Positions 1,138 through 14,407 of a DNA stretch of 17,519 nt are shown piece after piece. The stretch spans positions 1 to 17,519 of the forward strand of contig JBHLON010000050.1 of the NCBI GenBank assembly GCA_048940445.1, written 5' to 3'. Position 1 is the first letter of the stretch, and the number at the start of each line of letters is the position of its first letter. The translations under genes were made by a program, and so were the position numbers. The DNA is from Promethearchaeota archaeon. GTDB taxonomy: Archaea; Asgardarchaeota; Lokiarchaeia; Sigyniarchaeales; SOKP01. The notes under the pieces were generated by a model. The model was not told where the DNA came from. It saw only the letters and a list, made by a program, of their open reading frames with translations, and made no database searches.

Positions 1138-1896
1138 TTATGAAGATATTATCTTTCTAACTCTTATTAAATCATTAATTGTTAAATTTAATTTGTTTTT
1201 ATTATTCTTAAATTGCATAAATCCTTTATGATTAATTCCATCACAATAATATTTCATTGAATCATCAAGGATTACTTCTTTTCCATAAATTTGGGAGTGT
1301 TGATTGTATTCTTGGATTAAAGTCTGAATTTTTTCCGGATTGAATTCAATAATAGGTAAAAAATATTGATTTGCATAGAAACATATTTTATGAGCAAAAT
1401 CATCGAGAGAAACTGATTTATGTAATATGTCTTTAATGGATATAACTGTTGATTTTAAATCTTTTGGCATTTGGCTGCTTGGGTTATTTAAATTTACACC
1501 CATTCCAATCAAAATATAATTTTTTTGAGGGCCTGTTATATAATCGATTAAAATTCCCGCAAGCTTTTTATTTTTATATAACAAGTCGTTAGGCCACTTA
1601 ATTTGAACTATTCGATTATATTCTTCTTTAATAACATGTGTTAATAATATTGCTGTAAAATAGTGGAACAAAGCTAATTGCGATTCATTCAACGATATTG
1701 AAGTTAAAATCCCCAAAGATGCCCAAAATCCACCTTCTGGAGAAAACCAATCATCTTCCTTTCTACCTCGACCCTTAGTTTGAGTTTTTGCTATTAATAG
1801 AATTGATGAATAAAAGTCGTTTTGAAGGTATTCAATTACCTTATTTTGGGTTGAATCTGTTCTATTAATATGGATAATCTTTATTTTAGAGAACAT
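1138..1896 (-). CDS. birA: Biotin--protein ligase (group I, no N-terminal HTH repressor domain)
   Basis: Motifs DSTQN, QTKGRGR..W.SPEGG, KWPND, KKLAGIL, IGMGVN. About 252 aa with no DNA-binding N-terminus. ATG at 1896; an alternative TTG lies at 1899. Confidence 0.93.
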   Translation of the reverse strand: MFSKIKIIHINRTDSTQNKVIEYLQNDFYSSILLIAKTQTKGRGRKEDDWFSPEGGFWASLGILTSISLNESQLALFHYFTAILLTHVIKEEYNRIVQIKWPNDLLYKNKKLAGILIDYITGPQKNYILIGMGVNLNNPSSQMPKDLKSTVISIKDILHKSVSLDDFAHKICFYANQYFLPIIEFNPEKIQTLIQEYNQHSQIYGKEVILDDSMKYYCDGINHKGFMQFKNNKNKLNLTINDLIRVRKIISS

Positions 1897-2080
1897 CAAA
1901 ATATTAAATTTTTAAAAGTCTTAAATAATTCATAAAGTACTTTTTATTTTAAATTTTTAGCTCCACATTAAAAATGAGAAAATAAAAGTGTTGAAAACTG
2001 AAACTACGCTATTTATACAATGAAAACGGAGTAAATATGACATTTCATCAAGAATCTATTTTCATACTTTTTATTTAAAA

Positions 2081-2098
2081 TGAATGAATGTACATTCA
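2081..2098. promoter_or_regulatory. Palindromic operator, TetR/FadR-like (TGAATGA-N4-TCATTCA type)
   Basis: TGAATGAATGTACATTCA, which contains the perfect 14-bp palindrome TGAATGTACATTCA (2085-2098). A second copy lies at 17487-17504. Confidence 0.65.
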
Positions 2099-2225
2099 GT
2101 AATGATGGATAACGATAGCTTGCTAAATTCTAAAGGAAAAACCTTGAATTTGGCGTTTAATAAAAATCAAACGAATATTTAATAATAGCTTTGATAAAAT
2201 AATACTTTTAATAATCTGTTTTCAA

Positions 2226-2275
2226 GTAAAAATTTTATAAATAAACTTTTGATCAAAATATTAATTCTTTATATG
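2226..2275 (+). promoter_or_regulatory. Candidate archaeal-type BRE/TATA promoter elements
   Basis: GTAAAAATTTTATAAA (2226-2241) is perfectly conserved in the second repeat copy. TTTATATG (2268-2275) lies about 23-30 bp upstream of the ATG at 2298. No Shine-Dalgarno sequence precedes the ATG. The AT-rich background limits certainty. Confidence 0.4.
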
Positions 2276-2297
2276 AATAATTGAACGTCTATTCAAA

Positions 2298-3869
2298 ATG
2301 ATCTTAAGAGATAATAAATTGGAAAAGAAACAGAGAATTTCAAATAAATTACAAGAACTTCGAGATGCATATAAACTCGGTGGCGGACAAGAACGTATTA
2401 ATGCCCAACATAAAAAAGGAAAATTGACCGCAAGAGAGAGAATCGAATTATTAGTAGATTACGATTCTTTTATGGAAATTGACTCATTTGTTATGCATCA
2501 TAACGATAAATTTGGGATGGATAAAAAGAAATTTCTTGGAGATGGTGTGATAACTGGTTATGGTACAATAGACGGTCGAAAAGTTTTCATCTATAGCCAA
2601 GATTTTACAATATTAGGAGGGACTATTGGTAAAGCTCATGCTCAAAAAATATGTAAAGTGATGGATTTAGCATTAAAGATGGGATGTCCTATTATTGCTT
2701 TGATAGATTCAGGAGGTGCTCGTATTCAAGAAGGTGTTGATGCTCTAGATGGTTTAGGAGATATCTTTTATCGTAATGTTAAAGCTTCTGGGATTGTACC
2801 TCAAATTTCTGTTATCTTAGGAACTTCTGCTGGAGGAGCCGCATATAGTCCAGCATTAACTGATTTTATTATAATGGGTGGAAAAAATTCTTACATGTTC
2901 ATCACTGGTCCCCAAGTAGTGAATTCAGTTACTGGAGAAAACATCTCCTTATCTGAATTAGGAGGTTCTGAAATTCATTCAAAAATATCAGGTGTATGTC
3001 ATAAAGCGGTAGATACAGAGGAGGAAGCCTTAGAATTCGCAAAGAAACTGTTATCCTATTTACCTTCAAATAATCTAGATGATATACCTCATCCCCGAAA
3101 ACAGTTTCAAGTAACTGATTCCTATATATTAGACAGTCTAGTACCAGAAGACGAACATGAACCATATGATATGAAAAAATTAATCAATGTAATAGTGGAT
3201 CAGGGTTCATTTATAGAACTTTATCCTGATTGGGCTAAAAATATATTGATTGGGTTTGGGAGGTTTGAAAATCAAACGGTTGGTATTATTGCTAATCAGC
3301 CGGCGTTCCTTGGTGGCGCATTGGATTATAATGCATCAGATAAAGCTGCGAGGTTTATCCGATTTTGTGATGCATTTAATATACCACTCCTAACATTAGT
3401 AGACGTTCCAGGATTCATGCCTGGAGTTAAACAAGAAAATTCTGGAATTATTCGCCACGGTGCTAAAATGCTTTTTGCATATTCAGAAGCTACGGTACTA
3501 AAAATTACAGTTATTGTACGTAAAGCTTATGGTGGCGCGTATATTGTTATGAATTCAAAAAAATTAGGTTCTGATGTCAATATCGCATGGAATTCAGCAC
3601 AAATTGCTGTAATGGGCGCGAAAGGAGCATGTAAAATTTTATTTAGAAATCATTTAAAAGAAGTGAAAGATCCTGAGATTCTATTAAAAGATTTTAGCAA
3701 TCAGTATAAAAAAGAATTTTTAAATCCTTTTAGAGTTGCTGAAAAGGGACAAGTAGATACAGTAATCTTCCCACATGAGACACGAAATGAAATTATCAAA
3801 AGTCTGAAATTTTTTGAAACTAAACGTGAACAATCTCCCAAGCGGAAGCATGGAATCTCTCCAGTCTAA
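2298..3869 (+). CDS. Acyl-CoA (acetyl/propionyl-CoA) carboxylase, carboxyltransferase subunit (PccB/AccB/MmdA family)
   Basis: Motifs QHKKGKLTARERI, GDGVITGYG, DSGGARIQEG, GGAAYSPALTDF, ARFIRFCDAFNIP, DVPGF.PG..QE..GIIRHGAK, RKAYGGAY and C-terminal RKHG. 523 aa. Confidence 0.96.
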   Translation: MILRDNKLEKKQRISNKLQELRDAYKLGGGQERINAQHKKGKLTARERIELLVDYDSFMEIDSFVMHHNDKFGMDKKKFLGDGVITGYGTIDGRKVFIYSQDFTILGGTIGKAHAQKICKVMDLALKMGCPIIALIDSGGARIQEGVDALDGLGDIFYRNVKASGIVPQISVILGTSAGGAAYSPALTDFIIMGGKNSYMFITGPQVVNSVTGENISLSELGGSEIHSKISGVCHKAVDTEEEALEFAKKLLSYLPSNNLDDIPHPRKQFQVTDSYILDSLVPEDEHEPYDMKKLINVIVDQGSFIELYPDWAKNILIGFGRFENQTVGIIANQPAFLGGALDYNASDKAARFIRFCDAFNIPLLTLVDVPGFMPGVKQENSGIIRHGAKMLFAYSEATVLKITVIVRKAYGGAYIVMNSKKLGSDVNIAWNSAQIAVMGAKGACKILFRNHLKEVKDPEILLKDFSNQYKKEFLNPFRVAEKGQVDTVIFPHETRNEIIKSLKFFETKREQSPKRKHGISPV

Positions 3870-3880
3870 CAATTAAATTG

Positions 3881-6800
3881 ATGAGCTTTATGAAAAAGAA
3901 AAACACTATTCGAGAAATATTAAAAAATGAAATTCCTATTTGGGGTTATTCTCCCTTAGGATTAATCAATCCTTCACTTTCAGTTCAATTATCCCAAAAT
4001 GGAGGTGTTGGTTTAATTGATTTTGATGGTCTTGATTTTGATCAATGTCGAGTACTTTTAAATAAATTGTCGTCATCATTATCTTCCGATCATCTATGGG
4101 GTGTTAGAATTTCTACTCCAGATATCCTTAATGCACTCGAAATTCGAGATCTGATCCCAATTATCATTTGTGCATTTTCCCCTAATAGTAATGATATTAG
4201 ATTCATGAAAGAACATTCAAAATTACTTGTTTCTGAAGTCTTATACTTGAAGGAAGCTTATGAAACAGCAGAATGGTCAGATTTATTTCTTGTAAAAGGA
4301 AATGAAGCAGGTGGTATAGTAGGAAACAAAAACAGTTTTATACTTATTCAAGAATTCCAAAAAGCAGGTCTTTCCTTCATAATACAAGGTGGATTTGGAG
4401 TTTATAACATATCTCCTGCTCTTATTGGTGGAGCCTTGGGAGTTGTATTAGAAAGCCAGTTATTTCTACTCCCAGAATGCCCTTTGAGTCCAGAATTTAA
4501 GAATTATATCAAAACCATTGAAGAAAATGATTTTTATCTTATTAAGGAAACTTCTCGATATAATTATCGTTTGATTGGCAAACTGGCTAATAAATCAATA
4601 CGATACATAAAGGATTTTTACCAAAAAAATTTTAATATTTCAGAAAAAAAATTTAATACAGATTATCAAGCACTTAAAAAGGAATTTTTTCAGGAAATAA
4701 ATAAATTCATAAATAAATTTCAAATTTATTCAAATACAGATCCAAAACATTCATTCTTACCAAGTGATCATGGTATATGTTTTGCGAATTATATTCTCAT
4801 TAAATTTCAAAATATAGAAAATTTTCTTAATAATTTAACTAAAATAATTACTACTCAAGTTAAAAATTGTTTAGCCCATTGGCCTTTTACCAAAAATTCT
4901 GAATTTGCAAAACAGCTAGGCATTACATATCCAATCATTCAAGGTCCAATGGCAAATATCTCTGATAAATTATCTTTTGCTAAAACTATTGCAGATAATG
5001 GTGCCCTTCCAATTTTAGCGTTAGGGGGATTATTACCAGATGAAACAAATGAGTTGTTATCCGAATGTGATTCTGTAAATTTAGATAAGCCATATGGATG
5101 TGGTATTATAGGTTTAGATGCTGTAAAATCTCGTAGGGATGAACATCTTAGATGCATCTCAAATTACGGTCCTGAAATCACTTTAATTGCTGCCGGCACT
5201 ATAGATCTTGGTGTTCAAGTTCAAAACTCAGGCAATATTGTTTTATTCCACACACCTGCCTTATCGATGTTTAAAGAAGCTATAAAAAGAAACTTACCTT
5301 ACATTATATTAGAAGGTAGTGAATGCGGAGGACATTTTGGAACTCTCTCATCTTTTATTCTTTGGGAACGCATTTTGGAATATTTGGATGCAGATAAAAA
5401 GAATTTTCATAGGAAGATCAATATCATTTTTGCTGGTGGAATCATTAATGAAGTAAGTTCGGCATTATTAGCGGTAATGATATCAAATCATTTAGATCTT
5501 ATAAACCCCGGTATACAAATGGGAACCGCTTATCTCTTAAGTGAAGAAATTGTTACGACCAATGCATTATCACCAGTATATCAAGAGCAATTACTGAATA
5601 ACTCGTCCACAAATGTGATTGGTACGACTGTAAATACTCGTGCCAGAGTAATCCCTTCTGAATTCTCTCATCAAACTATTAAAAAAGAATATTTACGTAA
5701 AGTGAAAGGAATATCTATTTCTCAAAGAAAGGAATTGTATGAAAAAGATAATCTGGGTGCTCTTAGAATTGCTTCTAGAGCAGAAATTTGGAATAATAAT
5801 CATGAAGAGGGAAGTGGGACAACTCAATTCATTCCGGTCTCAACTAAAGACCAATTAACTAGAGGTGCTTTCATGACAGGTGATTCCATTTCCCTGCAAA
5901 AATCAATCAGAAGTATCTCGCAAATACATTATGATGTAGTAGATGAGGGTTTCAAATATATAAAAAAAAATTCAGTTCCAATTTTAACAAATTTAGGTTC
6001 TGTGTCTATGATAACCAAAAAAAAAAAACAAAAATTACACTCTATCGAAAATAAGATAGCAATTATAGGTTTGGGCTGCCTTTTCCCAGATGCCGAGAAC
6101 ATACCACAATTCTGGGAAAATATCATTAATAGAAAGTATTCTATAACAGAGGTTTCTAAAGATAGATGGGATTCAGATATATTTTATGATAAAGATCATT
6201 CAACTCCAGACAAATCATACACAAAAATCGGTGGATTTGTGAAAGATTTTGAGTTTAAATCTGTAAAATATCGGATTCCCCCAAAGATGGCAGAAAGGAT
6301 GGATTTAGTTCAGAAATGGGCCATTATCACAGCAAAAGAAGCACTCGATGATGCTAAGTTTCCTACTGATGGAAAACAACGTTTACCTATAGCCGTTATC
6401 GTTGGAAATTCCTCAGGAGGAGATGCTCAACGCCTTAGTAATAAAAGAGTGTTATTCAACGAAATCAAGTATAGAATTAATGAAGCATGTTCATATAAGA
6501 TCTTGAATCAAGAAGAACAAGATAACCTTATTAATTTCCTTGAAGACAAAATTATTAACCAAATTCCAATGATTAACGAGGATACAATGCCGGGTGAACT
6601 ATCGAACATAATTGCTGGAAGAGTTGCTAATGTTTACAATTTAACTGGTAAAAGCATGACAACTGATGCGGCATGTGCTTCAAGTTTAGCAGCTATTGAT
6701 ACTGCAGTTAATGGATTACTTGTCAAAGATTATGATACTGTCCTTGTAGGAGGGGCTGATAGTTCAATGGATCCTCAAACATACATTAAATTTTGTAAAA

Positions 6801-9800
6801 TTGGTGCACTTTCTGAAGAAGGGACTTATCCATTTGATGCTCGTGCAAATGGTTTTGTAATGGGTGAAGGAGCTGGGTTTTTGGTTTTAAAAAGACTTGA
6901 TGATGCTTTGCGTGATGAAAATAAAATTTATGCCATCATTAGTGGATATGGTAGTTCATCAGACGGAAAAGGAAAGGGAATTACAGCACCTAATCCAGAA
7001 GGTCAAAAATTAGCCATAAAGAGAGCATTGAAAAATAGTAGTGTTGATCAATCTGAGATTCAATATCTTGAATGTCATGGGACTTCTACTGCTGTTGGAG
7101 ATGCAACGGAATTAAATATATTAGGAGATGTATTTTCTGGAAGAGCTCCGGATGATAAACTCGCTATTGGCTCAATAAAAAGTCAAATTGGGCATCTTAA
7201 AAGTGCATCGGGAATAGCAGGCATTATTAAGACAATACTTGCATTAAGCAACAAAATTATTCCTCCATCCATTAATGTTTCAACTCTTAATCCCGCTATC
7301 AATTGGGATGTTGCTCCCTATTATGTTAACACTCAACCAATTGAATGGCCACTTCCTAAAAATGGAATTAGAAGAGCAGGAATTTCTTCATTCGGATTTG
7401 GAGGTACAAATTACCATGTAATCCTTGAGGAATACATACCACATGATTATGAAAAATCATCTATTGATACACCGAATCAATTTCCTTTATGTGAAGAACA
7501 TATGTATGATCATCTTGAATCTCCAATTGAGAAATCTTTTATTTCTTATTCAAGTGATCTATGCTTTTTATTTAGCGGTCAGGGAAGTCAATATATTGGT
7601 ATGGCAAAAGAATTATATGAGAATTTCCAAATAGTTAAAGAAGTATTTGATAAGGCAAATGAAATATGCAGAGAATCTGGTGGCTTCGATCTACTAGAAG
7701 TGATTTTTGGATCACCTAATTTATCTCAAGAAGAAAATTCTAAAAGATTAAGACAAACAGAGTTTACACAACCTGCTATCTATTCAGTTGAAATGGCTTT
7801 AGTAGAACTATTGAAAACAAAAGATGTTATCCCTGGAATTGTTGGTGGTCATAGTTTAGGAGAATTTACAGCTTTAGTTACTGCAGGAGTATTTAGTTTT
7901 GAGGACGGTTTAAAAATTGTAATTAAGAGAGGTAGTGCTATGTCAGAATTACCTCCTGGAGTTCAATGCACAATGGCAGCGATATTTACATCACCTGATG
8001 TAGTTGAGAAAACCTTGAACGAAATATCTATCGAAGGCGTATCAATATCAAATTATAACTCTACTTCTCAAACGGTTGTTTCAGGCGAATCTTCTGCAAT
8101 TGAGTCAGTAGTGAAAATCTTCTCAGAGAAAGACATACGTGCTCTTAAATTAAATGTTTCTAATGCCTTTCATTCAAAATTTGTTGCACATGCAGAGGAA
8201 AAGTTAAAGGAATTTTTAGAAACCATACCATTTAAACCTCCTAGCATCCCAGTTTATAGTAATGTAACAGGAAAGATATATCCCGATAATCCTGAAAAAA
8301 TAAAATCAATCCTGCTTAAACAGATTACATCCCCAGTAAGATGGGTTGATGAAATCATGAATATTTATCAAAATGGCGGACGAAAATTTTTAGAGATAGG
8401 TCCAAAAAAAGCCTTATTCTTCTTTACTAAGGATATCCTGAAAAAATACAAGGATATTGATGTAAATTTTACCCTTTCACCAAAATCTTCTGAAAAAGAA
8501 CACATTCAAAAAATCTTTGAGAAGTTTAAAACCTCAAAACCAACGAGTTCTACTGAAGATAACATAATTTTTTCGCAATCAAGTGTGATTTCAACACCTG
8601 TAATAAAACAAGATATTTCAAGTTCGAATATAGGACCATTTGATATAAACCAGCTTCCATTTTTTAAAGAGTTTTTAGAGGAACAAAAAGAGATTCTGTC
8701 TTCTGTGATGATCCAAGGTTTTCGTAATTACTTCAATAAACTTCATACTTCAATCGAAAATTTTTATGGGAAAGATAGAACAGGATCAAAATCTAACCCT
8801 GTAGTAATTACTGGTGTAGGTATTGGACTTCCTGGGAAAAATCGTAAGATTTTTGATGATAAAAATATAGATGATATTTTGGATGGAGTAAATCTAATAG
8901 AATCTGTTAGTAGTGAATATCAAAAACAATTATTGAAAAAGAAAATAATTCGATTAGAAAAATCTCCTACAGGTAATGCTAAATTTGTTTCTGTTGATAA
9001 GATTTCCGATGTGATTCACATGGCTGGGCAACTGGGAGAATTTAATCCTACAGATGATTATCAGCTGAATTCTAAGATGCTAAATGCCTTAGATATTACA
9101 TCTCAACTGGCAATATGTGCAGGATACGATGCGCTTAAAGATGCGGGAATTCCATTAATTCGCACTATTGTTAAAACTTCTACAGGGAAAACTTTAAGCG
9201 GAGACTGGGCTCTCCCTGAATCCTTACAAGATGATACTGGTGTTATTTTTGCATCAGCTTTCCCCGGATACGATAACTTTGCCGAGGAATTTTTAAATAA
9301 TTCCAATCTTGACCAAAATAACCAAAATACTGTTGAGGACGAACATAAAAATTTTAATCGTTCATTTTTATTTAGAGTTTTATCTATGGGTCATTCACAA
9401 TTTGCTCAACTAATAAAAGCAAAAGGGCCTAATACATCTACGAATGCGGCATGTGCTTCTACTCCTCAAGCAATTAGCATTGCTGAAGATTGGATTCGAA
9501 ATGGGAGATGTAATCGTGTTATCGTCATCACAGCTGATAATGTCACAAGTGAGAACCTTTTTCAATGGATCGGAGCAGGTTTTTTAGCAAGTGGAGCGGC
9601 CACAACGGAATCAACATGGGAAGATGCTGTACTCCCGTTTGGTGAGGGAAGGAATGGAATTATCTTAGGTGCAGGGGCAAGTGCATTCGTTATTGAGAAA
9701 CATTCTGTGGCCGAATCTCGAGGAGTTAAACCGATTGTTGAAATTATTGGCTCGGATTTCGCAAATAGTGCATATCATGGTACTCGACTAGATAAGGATC

Positions 9801-14407: not shown

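Follow-up and report, generated by a model that had tools for sequence, protein, structure and literature searches.

Among the secondary-lipid synthases of bacteria, the survey by Shulse & Allen (2011, PLoS One 6:e20146, PMC3098273) lists an uncharacterised 'Type R' with the layout KS-MAT-'CLF'-ACP(3-6)-KR, found in Koribacter, Solibacter, Elusimicrobium and Roseiflexus. A PPTase is associated with it, and the Koribacter cluster also includes an acetyl-CoA carboxylase gene. The same text mentions the 'Type S' synthase of Desulfobacterium autotrophicum HRM2, for which a role as core FAS was proposed as possible. Further systems for comparison are the canonical Pfa synthases, split into PfaA/B/C/D/E, the animal FAS (KS-MAT-DH-ER-KR-ACP-TE, with an MDR-type ER) and the barrel-forming fungal/CMN FAS (AT-ER-DH-MPT-ACP-KR-KS(-PPT)). 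A published description of the Asgard megasynthase treated here was not found in a literature search.

Architecture and family membership

The window analysed here is an entire 17.5-kb contig (17,519 nt) assigned to a Promethearchaeota archaeon; coordinates refer to its plus strand unless stated otherwise. It carries a single uninterrupted frame at 3878-14407 which encodes 3509 aa when counted from TTG 3878. Alternative starts are ATG 3881, the choice of an earlier annotation made from the DNA letters (the sequence-only reading), and ATG 3890, which is conserved in homologues (invariant M5); the database twin (P0002) has 3505 aa, so that the length is 3,505-3,509 residues depending on the start. 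Pfam and NCBIfam scans recover the order psiER-ER-KS1-AT-KS2-ACPx3-KR-DH-PPTase in one chain, and alignments show that the catalytic residues of the active domains are present here and invariant across 56-120 homologues. The order given by the sequence-only reading is therefore real and, as had been claimed, its layout differs from those of animal FAS, fungal/CMN FAS and the canonical split Pfa synthases. The same order recurs in more than 50 independent assemblies, two closed Asgard genomes among them, and end-to-end homologues that share it measure 3350-3800 aa. Judged by its domains, the chain comprises a complete enzyme set for a saturated acyl chain plus its own activating enzyme; no methyltransferase, cyclase or terminal reductase was found in the ORF with Pfam.

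The likeness to the Pfa synthases consists of two active KS domains, tandem ACPs with KR and a PKS-type DH behind them, an ER of the PfaD/FabK fold and a PfaE-like PPTase of the Sfp type. The proposed PfaA-like backbone can accordingly be recognised in KS1-AT, the tandem ACPs, KR and DH, with the PfaA model TIGR02813 scoring 894.6 bits in four stretches, which is below its curated cut-off of 1010.1. Unlike in PfaA/B/C/D/E, however, all domains reside on one chain; PfaB, a KS-CLF pair and a FabA-type DH/isomerase are absent, KS2 is placed between AT and the ACPs, and the carriers have Thr instead of Ser. With the fungal/CMN FAS the protein shares an FMN-dependent TIM-barrel ER and a PPTase at the C-terminus of the chain, but the order is another one, an MPT/AT pair is missing, the ACPs are in tandem, and the condensing region KS-AT as well as KR/DH are of the PKS/Pfa type. 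Of the suggestion that ER and PPTase recall fungal FAS, the shared traits thus stand, whereas the fusions are analogous and the architecture is not commonly inherited. The animal FAS has an MDR-type ER, a TE and a different order, in contrast to the N-terminal NMO/FabK-type ER and the lack of a TE here.

The single pfaA-like ORF of Type R, with KS-MAT, a second KS-like domain, ACP(3-6) and KR corresponds to KS1-AT-KS2-ACP3-KR(-DH) here, but its PPTase is a separate downstream gene and it has no ER, whereas here the PPTase is fused C-terminally and an ER didomain N-terminally. In addition, KS2 keeps Cys-His-His and hence is no Cys-less CLF, the host is an Asgard archaeon, and the operon includes a whole carboxylase, a BirA and a hydrolase. 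The shared architecture and the existence of family representatives with KS1-AT-KS2-ACPn-KR-DH suggest relatedness to Type R.

KS2 marks out a family that counts at least 150 clusters at 50% identity, in the census of which the core KS1-AT-KS2-ACPn-KR-DH dominates and within which fusions of ER and PPTase are variable add-ons. Cluster representatives include Polyangiaceae and Thermoplasmatota. The identical order ER-ER-KS-AT-KS2-ACP2-3-KR-DH-PPT is found in the Desulfomonile type (~3550 aa, e.g., P0115 of D. tiedjei), with 28-49% identity per domain to the megasynthase of the window. The Desulfobacter type, which is probably 'Type S', has a CLF-like domain added after KS1 and no PPTase. Both types have DLGIDTVK carriers and both are bacterial, unlike the host of the window. 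In a midpoint-rooted FastTree phylogeny the Desulfomonile-type bacteria fall inside the archaeal clade, but this evidence is unrooted and no direction of transfer is drawn from it.

The megasynthase hence belongs to the lineage of Pfa/PKS-like megasynthases and is not a de novo invention. The claim of an unusual architecture does not hold in that form, since its core is catalogued as 'Type R' and the full order occurs also in Desulfomonile-type bacteria. As to the idea of an independently built type I FAS, the complete set on one chain remains and the independence is lost to the Pfa/PKS descent; 'type I FAS' itself is a putative assignment, the product being uncharacterised for every member of the family.

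Domains and catalytic residues

The chain starts with psiER (ER1; 3890..4885, residues ~5-336), a degenerate duplicate of an FMN enoyl reductase of the FabK/PfaD type. Its NMO match in Pfam (residues 1-336) reaches 28.1 bits against a cut-off of 28, profile-profile comparison with ER2 (hhalign) gives a probability of 98.4% and an E of 9e-15 over 240 columns, and ER1 modelled by itself with AF2 (pLDDT 90.5) aligns to FabK 2z6i with Z 29.9 and an rmsd of 2.8 A over 297 residues (VIA-align). While the full FabK-type fold is kept, the catalytic His and the QGPM site are lost throughout the family: where the His would stand (residue 147), this protein has Ile and its homologues have R/K/I/L/M, and the place of QGPM is taken by WGYS here and by W/F-G/A-Y-S/N in homologues. 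The label 'psiER' is thus justified by the match to ER2, the FabK-like model and the missing residues.

ER2 (4886..5992, residues 337-705) is an intact, NMO/FabK-like enoyl reductase of the FabK/PfaD type. It matches TIGR03151 (FabK) over 342-695 with 81.3 bits and, as this is below the equivalog cut-off of 453.1, is a FabK-fold domain and not a FabK orthologue. Its PDB sequence matches are FabK (E ~1e-15), and its model aligns to 5gvh (Z 36.8, rmsd 2.2 A over 308 residues), to PfaD (Z 32.7; PfaD structures 4z9r, 6lkc) and to the ER of yeast and Candida FAS (Z 27-29). QGPM, ExGGH (H486) and GG are invariant in homologues. By sequence and model the ER is therefore, as predicted, of the FMN/TIM-barrel type known from FabK, PfaD and fungal FAS, and not of the MDR type. 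Modelled together, ER1 and ER2 form one rigid unit (pLDDT 90.8, pTM 0.92); ER domains of the FabK/PfaD type work as homo- or heterodimers (PMC13311796). Fusions of NMO and KS exist also among proteins found in an ESM Atlas search.

KS1 (6035..7492, residues 720-1205) is a PKS/PfaA-type ketosynthase with a C-terminal linker (PF00109, PF02801, PF16197; KS at 725-1134 plus KAsynt_C_assoc in Pfam), which covers positions 7-466 of TIGR02813, has its best PDB matches in the KS-AT of type I PKS, and of which C933, H1067 and H1106 are invariant in homologues. It is followed by a malonyl-type AT (7550..8482, residues 1225-1535, Pfam match 1230-1529; PF00698 154 bits, TIGR00128 FabD 243.6 bits) with an invariant GHSxG (S1326) and AFH His (H1432). 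The second ketosynthase, KS2 (8795..10162, residues ~1640-2095), is divergent and FabF-like (PF00109 63 bits; FabF 2gqd, E 4e-28). As its C1859, H2007 and H2047 are invariant in 120 sequences, like its H-E-T motif, a Cys-less chain-length factor is ruled out.

Downstream of the ACPs, the KR region (11225..12667) consists of a presumed structural subdomain and the catalytic ketoreductase (Pfam KR at residues 2692-2916; PF08659 98.8 bits, best PDB matches PKS KRs), with GGxxGI, Y2885 and N2889 invariant in homologues. Residues ~2450-2690, its N-terminal part, have no Pfam match and would represent the structural subdomain. The DH (12881..13621, residues 3002-3248) is a PKS-type double-hotdog dehydratase (PF21089 plus PF14765; PDB match 5hst, a PKS DH) whose H3012 is likewise invariant in homologues.

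Operon, genome-wide complement and product

The gene is part of an operon, BirA-PccB-megasynthase-hydrolase-BCCP-AccC, which is syntenic in six Asgard genomes from five families, two of these genomes being closed. A BirA-type biotin-protein ligase (1138..1899, minus strand; TIGR00121 124.5 bits) precedes the PccB-like acyl-CoA carboxylase carboxyltransferase (2298..3869; PF01039 605 bits), which lies immediately upstream of the megasynthase and is syntenic in all six. An alpha/beta-hydrolase (14413..15207; PF12146), a candidate chain-release enzyme with esterase and monoglyceride-lipase matches in the PDB, has its ATG 5 nt past the megasynthase stop (the longest hydrolase ORF begins at 14365) and is syntenic in G227, G026, G046, G063 and G112. 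A biotin carboxyl carrier protein (15211..15738; PF00364, PRK05641), again syntenic, and the biotin carboxylase AccC (15787..17337, minus strand; PRK08654 592 bits) complete the set, and AccC and megasynthase are identical in presence and absence in 31 relatives. Repeat search and alignment furthermore reveal a leader of ~200 nt upstream of pccB (2077..2277), with an inverted second copy at 17309-17508, upstream of accC. The leader holds the palindrome TGAATGAAYGTWCATTYA; in the repeat search the copies match along 121 nt (82%) and 40 nt (80%), and they were aligned over 241 columns. The duplicated leader thus precedes both transcription units. Rfam gave no match in the window.

In five Asgard genomes searched (G000, G026, G046, G227, G112) the megasynthase provides the only PP-binding domains, the only ACPS domain and the only strong KS matches. 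That carriers, PPTase and true ketosynthases are found nowhere else in them supports a self-contained and self-priming system. PF07977 (FabA/FabZ) is absent from the ORF and from the same five genomes, whereas the control search was positive in 9 reference genomes; with no FabA-type domain anywhere in the genome there is no route to cis double bonds. Homologues of PlsY and/or PlsC are present in Asgard genomes, and one PlsY adjoins the cluster in G046. The cluster itself is patchily distributed (67/400 Asgard genomes) and occurs in 0/41 genomes of the window's own genus, and must therefore be dispensable in many lineages.

It is unlikely, though to be taken seriously, that the enzyme specialises in a secondary lipid or polyketide and that its product (e.g., a very-long-chain, hydroxy, diol-type or signalling lipid, or a precursor tailored elsewhere) is not a general membrane fatty acid. 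Its descent from Pfa-like synthases, the characterised relatives of which make PUFAs, heterocyst glycolipid chains and phenolic-lipid alkyl chains according to PMC3098273, points in this direction, as do the patchy distribution, the combination of two KS with multiple ACPs, which follows PUFA-type rather than housekeeping FAS logic, and the lipidomics of a cultured Lokiarchaeon, where archaeal lipids only were reported (Imachi 2020, as cited in PMC13400652). However, the full reducing set KR-DH-ER in an ORF that is devoid of FabA-type isomerase, methyltransferase, cyclase and terminal reductase, the tight and conserved linkage to a complete acetyl/acyl-CoA carboxylase and biotin ligase, the position as sole ACP-dependent system in the genome and the near-universal presence in some Asgard families (f13 27/31, f15 11/12, f18 12/12) all argue against this reading.

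Placement of the contig

With a window that comprises one whole contig, an assembly or binning artefact has to be considered: separate genes could have been joined into a chimera, or the contig could be bacterial and have ended up in an archaeal bin. By composition the contig stands apart from the rest of its bin (GC 32.3% vs 30.2%; ranked 68/72 in tetranucleotide distance), the cluster is missing from the 41 same-genus genomes, and in G000 a second copy of the orthologue of the flanking thiolase is located on C4, while congeners have one. Yet a 171-kb contig (G227), which also carries a Ras-family GTPase, shows the identical gene and operon order at 70-85% identity, the same order occurs in closed Asgard genomes of 4.36 Mb and 3.33 Mb, and the best matches of the neighbouring genes are archaeal-type models. 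These observations rule out a chimera or bacterial contamination, and the recurrence of the order in independent assemblies and end-to-end homologues likewise shows that the ORF is not pieced together from separate genes, so that such an artefact is very improbable. The contig probably owes its place in the bin to mis-binning or to transfer from a sister genus; the doubt is limited to the assignment of the host at genus level, and concerns neither the gene nor its Asgard origin.

Threonine carriers and the fused PPTase

The three tandem ACP domains (10427..11203; PF00550 x3, at 10427-10621, 10700-10897 and 11000-11203) match positions 1201-1487 of TIGR02813, with KR and PS-DH coming next. All three read DLGIDTVK and have Thr (2214, 2305 and 2405) at the canonical position of the phosphopantetheinyl-Ser; the Ser of the carrier-protein motif (D)LGxDS, the attachment residue of PF00550, is absent from each. 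Across the family, Thr occupies this position in 342/357 instances of the motif and Ser in 15, and in over 200 diverse homologues from archaea and bacteria practically all carrier copies read DLGIDTVK. We know of no phosphopantetheinyl-Thr, and the S36T variant of E. coli ACP is not modified by AcpS, Ser-to-Thr mutants of ACP not being AcpS substrates; for these reasons the priming of the carriers is put forward here as a proposal only.

The fusion of a PPTase, as postulated before, is borne out by a C-terminal Sfp-type 4'-phosphopantetheinyl transferase domain (13745..14404, residues 3290-3509, stop codon 14405-14407) in which PF01648 matches in two stretches, corresponding to the two ACPS lobes, in addition to PF22624 (AASDHPPT_N) and TIGR00556, with AcpS and HetI models matching on both halves, and in which D3397/E3399 (D-x-E) and K3435/E3436 (K-E) are invariant in homologues. 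Fused, and the sole ACPS-family domain in each of the five genomes, it gives good grounds to infer that the megasynthase would be self-activating. That the protein is a non-functional relic with three carriers which cannot be primed, as Thr at all three attachment positions and the failure of the Ser-to-Thr mutants might suggest, is scarcely credible, since the Thr motif conserved in nearly every carrier copy, the other invariant catalytic residues, the uninterrupted frame of 10.5 kb and a dedicated PPTase, fused or adjacent, that co-evolves with it indicate purifying selection on a working system.

Proposed mechanism

We therefore consider it likely, though by no means certain, that the ORF encodes an intact, iterative, PUFA-synthase-like type I megasynthase, the most fused form of a KS2-bearing 'Type R-like' family, which works as follows. 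Malonyl-CoA would be supplied by the carboxylase of the operon (PccB, BCCP, AccC), and the three carriers would be primed in cis by the C-terminal Sfp-type PPTase on the Thr of DLGIDTVK, a chemistry without precedent. Malonyl units loaded by AT would be condensed by both KS1 and KS2, which probably share the labour as in PUFA synthases, each serving different chain lengths or one priming and the other elongating, and full reduction of each beta-keto group would fall to KR, the PKS-type DH and the FabK-type ER2. In this process psiER may act as a catalytically dead partner, offering ER2 a dimer-like interface that in FabK/PfaD-type ERs otherwise comes from a second subunit. Because there is no FabA-type dehydratase/isomerase in the genome, the expected product is a long acyl chain, saturated or at most partly reduced, which might be released by the adjacent hydrolase or passed to acyltransferases of the PlsY/PlsC type. 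The roles of KS2, psiER and the hydrolase are presumptive.

Implications for Asgard lipids

Archaea are held to lack both FAS I and FAS II, with ACP and ACP synthase nearly absent (reviews; 2024 preprint 10.1101/2024.07.05.601840), and Asgard genomes carry plsY and plsC without a known acyl donor (PMC13400652). On paper, a conserved operon with malonyl-CoA supply, a complete carrier-based synthase and an activating enzyme fills this gap. A further step, which we can advance only tentatively and which is on present evidence rather doubtful, is that several Asgard lineages inherited the megasynthase in ancient times and have it as their native and only ACP-dependent FAS, that it is phosphopantetheinylated on Thr in cis, and that its products enter PlsY/PlsC and partly fatty-acid-based membranes. 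If true, the archaeal lineage from which eukaryotes arose would possess a complete fatty-acid route, and Thr phosphopantetheinylation would be a type of post-translational modification that no carrier protein is known to undergo. For enzymology, the interest lies in a FAS that is assembled from Pfa/PKS parts on one chain, in a tandem of a dead and a live ER, and in carriers with Thr sites. The operon also makes the question of the 'lipid divide' directly testable in relatives of eukaryotes: with this locus it can be tested whether their closest archaeal relatives synthesise fatty acids.

Architecture and active sites of the megasynthase

The megasynthase is encoded by a single uninterrupted frame on the + strand (3878-14407), comprising 3509 codons when counted from the TTG at 3878. 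The ATG at 3881, taken as the start in the sequence-only reading, lies one codon inside, while the start kept by the homologues, in which M5 is invariant, is the ATG at 3890; the identical protein in the database, P0002, is 3505 aa long. Searched in full and in parts against Pfam and NCBIfam, the protein resolves into a weak NMO-like domain (ER1, residues 1-336; 28.1 bits, cut-off 28), a clear domain of the NMO/FabK kind (ER2, 337-705), a KS with a PKS-type C-terminal linker (KS1, 725-1201), an AT (1230-1529), a second, divergent KS (KS2, about 1640-2095; PF00109, 63 bits), three PP-binding domains (profile matches, nt 10427-11203), a KR (2692-2916), a DH of the PKS double-hotdog type (3002-3248) and a PPTase of the Sfp type, made up of two ACPS lobes (3290-3509). 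The order psiER-ER-KS-AT-KS-ACP3-KR-DH-PPT claimed beforehand is therefore correct.

When each domain was excised from up to 120 homologues and aligned, the catalytic residues proved to be invariant in KS1 (Cys933, His1067, His1106), AT (GHS1326xG, His1432), KR (GGxxGI, Tyr2885, Asn2889), DH (His3012), ER2 (QGPM, ExGGH486, GG) and the PPTase (Asp3397, Glu3399, Lys3435, Glu3436). The same holds for Cys1859, His2007 (within an invariant H-E-T) and His2047 of KS2, which therefore is not a Cys-less chain-length factor. The nearest solved relatives of KS2 are FabF enzymes (2gqd, E 4e-28), and the KS1-AT region most resembles the PfaA model and the condensing regions of type I PKSs. All three carriers read DLGIDTVK, with Thr2214, Thr2305 and Thr2405 at the position of the phosphopantetheinyl serine. 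Across over 200 homologues from archaea and bacteria, nearly every carrier copy shares this threonine (342 motif instances with Thr, 15 with Ser); it is a hallmark of the family and no lesion.

The first ER had been read as a pseudo-ER, and this is borne out by three lines of evidence. In a profile-profile comparison the ER1 and ER2 alignments match with 98.4% probability (E 9e-15, 240 columns), placing EGSECGGHFG of ER2 opposite KGNEAGGIVG of ER1. The ER1 homologues have R, K, I, L or M at the position of the catalytic histidine, and W/F-G/A-Y-S/N in place of QGPM. Finally, an AlphaFold2 model of ER1 by itself (pLDDT 90.5) superimposes on the FabK of S. pneumoniae (Z 29.9; rmsd 2.8 Å, 297/317 residues), the ER2 model reaching Z 36.8 to FabK and Z 32.7 to PfaD. 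Modelled together, the two form one rigid body (pLDDT 90.8, pTM 0.92). Since ER domains of the FabK/PfaD type are reported to be homodimers or, in thraustochytrids, a heterodimer (PMC13311796), we infer that the dead ER1 copy may supply the partner surface of ER2 inside one chain.

Relationship to known systems and family census

In agreement with the sequence-only reading, the domain orders of animal and fungal FAS are both absent from the megasynthase; an FMN-type ER and a terminal PPTase are common to it and to fungal FAS as analogous fusions. With 894.6 bits against a curated cut-off of 1010.1, it falls outside PfaA. Going by the architecture as described, the closest catalogued entity is the Type R secondary lipid synthase cluster of Shulse and Allen (2011; PMC3098273), which combines KS-MAT-CLF-ACP(3-6)-KR with a PPTase, in Koribacter also includes an ACC gene, and has an uncharacterised product; for the related deltaproteobacterial Type S cluster the same source proposes a possible role as core FAS. 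Apart from a note at the antiSMASH level (PMC7472256), the literature search returned no paper on this enzyme of Asgard archaea, and a 2024 preprint (10.1101/2024.07.05.601840) describes archaea as being without FAS I and as nearly lacking ACP and ACP synthase.

Searching with the full length retrieved proteins of 3350-3800 aa that are homologous from end to end. They stem from numerous independent assemblies, classified as Hod-, Loki-, Heimdall-, Thor- or Kariarchaeota or Promethearchaeota, and one of them is the original entry for Lokiarchaeum GC14_75, whose annotation is 'Pks15/1'. When domains were mapped, every full-length Asgard match had the same order, and with this recurrence across independent assemblies a chimera of separate genes is rejected. 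Nor is the architecture unique: bacteria of the Desulfomonile type have the identical order in proteins of about 3550 aa (for example P0115 of D. tiedjei). Desulfobacter-type proteins (about 3900 aa) carry an extra CLF-like domain after KS1 and no PPTase, and another archaeal group (about 3000-3250 aa) is devoid of the ER didomain.

With KS2 alone as query against 1.84 billion representatives, 509 clusters were found at E <= 1e-30, the top 150 scoring above 385 bits each; Polyangiaceae and Thermoplasmatota are among the few named members. Among the 73 representatives that are 2400 aa or longer, about 25 consist of KS1-AT-KS2-ACPn-KR-DH, about 27 extend this core by a PPTase at the C-terminus, about 10 are of an ER-ER-KS-CLF-like type and about nine show the fully fused order. 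What stays constant is thus the backbone, to which ER and PPTase are variably fused. In a midpoint-rooted tree of KS1+AT+KS2 (P0001-P0121), the Desulfomonile-type proteins lie inside the archaeal clade and adjoin its ER-less forms, the Desulfobacter-type proteins forming the other deep clade. The tree makes a transfer between the domains of life, in either direction, likely.

Gene neighbourhood

The megasynthase gene is preceded by genes for an archaeal-type, PRK06064-like thiolase (1-1122), BirA (1138-1899, - strand) and a PccB-type carboxyltransferase (2298-3869, +), and followed by those for an alpha/beta-hydrolase (14413-15207, +), starting 5 nt past its stop, BCCP (15211-15738, +) and AccC (15787-17337, -). 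The BirA-PccB-megasynthase-hydrolase-BCCP-AccC block is syntenic on a 171-kb contig of the Asgard genome G227 (70-85% identity), where the thiolase also flanks it, in G063, and in two closed genomes, G026 (4.36 Mb) and G046 (3.33 Mb). In G112 the genes are adjacent in rearranged order; in G085 PccB and AccC alone accompany an ER-less megasynthase gene, and no match for hydrolase, BCCP or BirA was found. Among 31 relatives the presence of AccC coincides exactly with that of the megasynthase. In G063 an extra PccB-AccC pair lies immediately upstream of the cluster's PccB (locus L022, 3192-8032), the carboxylase genes being tandemly duplicated.

Leaders of approximately 200 nt precede the pccB operon (2077-2277) and accC (17309-17508). 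They are about 80% identical, have the same orientation relative to their own genes, each contain the palindrome TGAATGAAYGTWCATTYA, and matched no Rfam family. Ends of a mobile element are disfavoured; the pair looks like a duplicated promoter/operator that might couple both transcription units.

Distribution and origin of the contig

The gene was found in 67 of 400 genomes of the phylum, being near-universal in the families f13 (27/31), f15 (11/12) and f18 (12/12) and patchy in the window's own family (9/54 in genus g20); the cluster was detected in none of 41 other genomes searched in the window's genus. The window makes up one complete contig of a 3.64-Mb bin (93% complete), within which it is an outlier in GC and tetranucleotide composition. 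Its best match is the g20 genome G227 (80% identity), and the bin holds a second, 81% identical copy of the flanking thiolase orthologue (C4:48674-49777), congeners having one copy. Taken together, these observations suggest that the contig was probably either mis-binned or recently transferred horizontally from a sister genus. The Asgard origin of the cluster is nevertheless secure, because it occurs in closed genomes and because in G227 it lies about 5 kb from the genes for TPR/wHTH proteins and for a small GTPase of the Ras family (locus L014, 10743-11285), useful markers of an Asgard chromosomal context.

A self-contained system and its putative product

Genome-wide domain searches in five Asgard genomes (G000, the source bin, G026, G046, G227 and G112) showed that PP-binding domains and strong KS matches are confined to the megasynthase gene and that its own ACPS-family PPTase domain is the sole one; no FabA/FabZ domain was found in any of the five. 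PlsC-type acyltransferases are present in three of them and PlsY homologues in four. In the closed genome G046 a PlsY-type glycerol-phosphate acyltransferase gene (C1:564206-564820) lies just upstream of the cluster (L016), adjoining its BirA, which hints at the destination of the acyl product.

As a mechanism it may be proposed that the carboxylase provides malonyl-CoA and that the carriers, primed by the PPTase in cis, are loaded by the AT. Condensation would be carried out by KS1 and KS2, probably over different chain-length ranges as in PUFA synthases, and each unit would be fully reduced by KR, DH and ER2. As there is no isomerising dehydratase, the product would be a saturated chain, which might be released by the hydrolase or transferred to acyltransferases.
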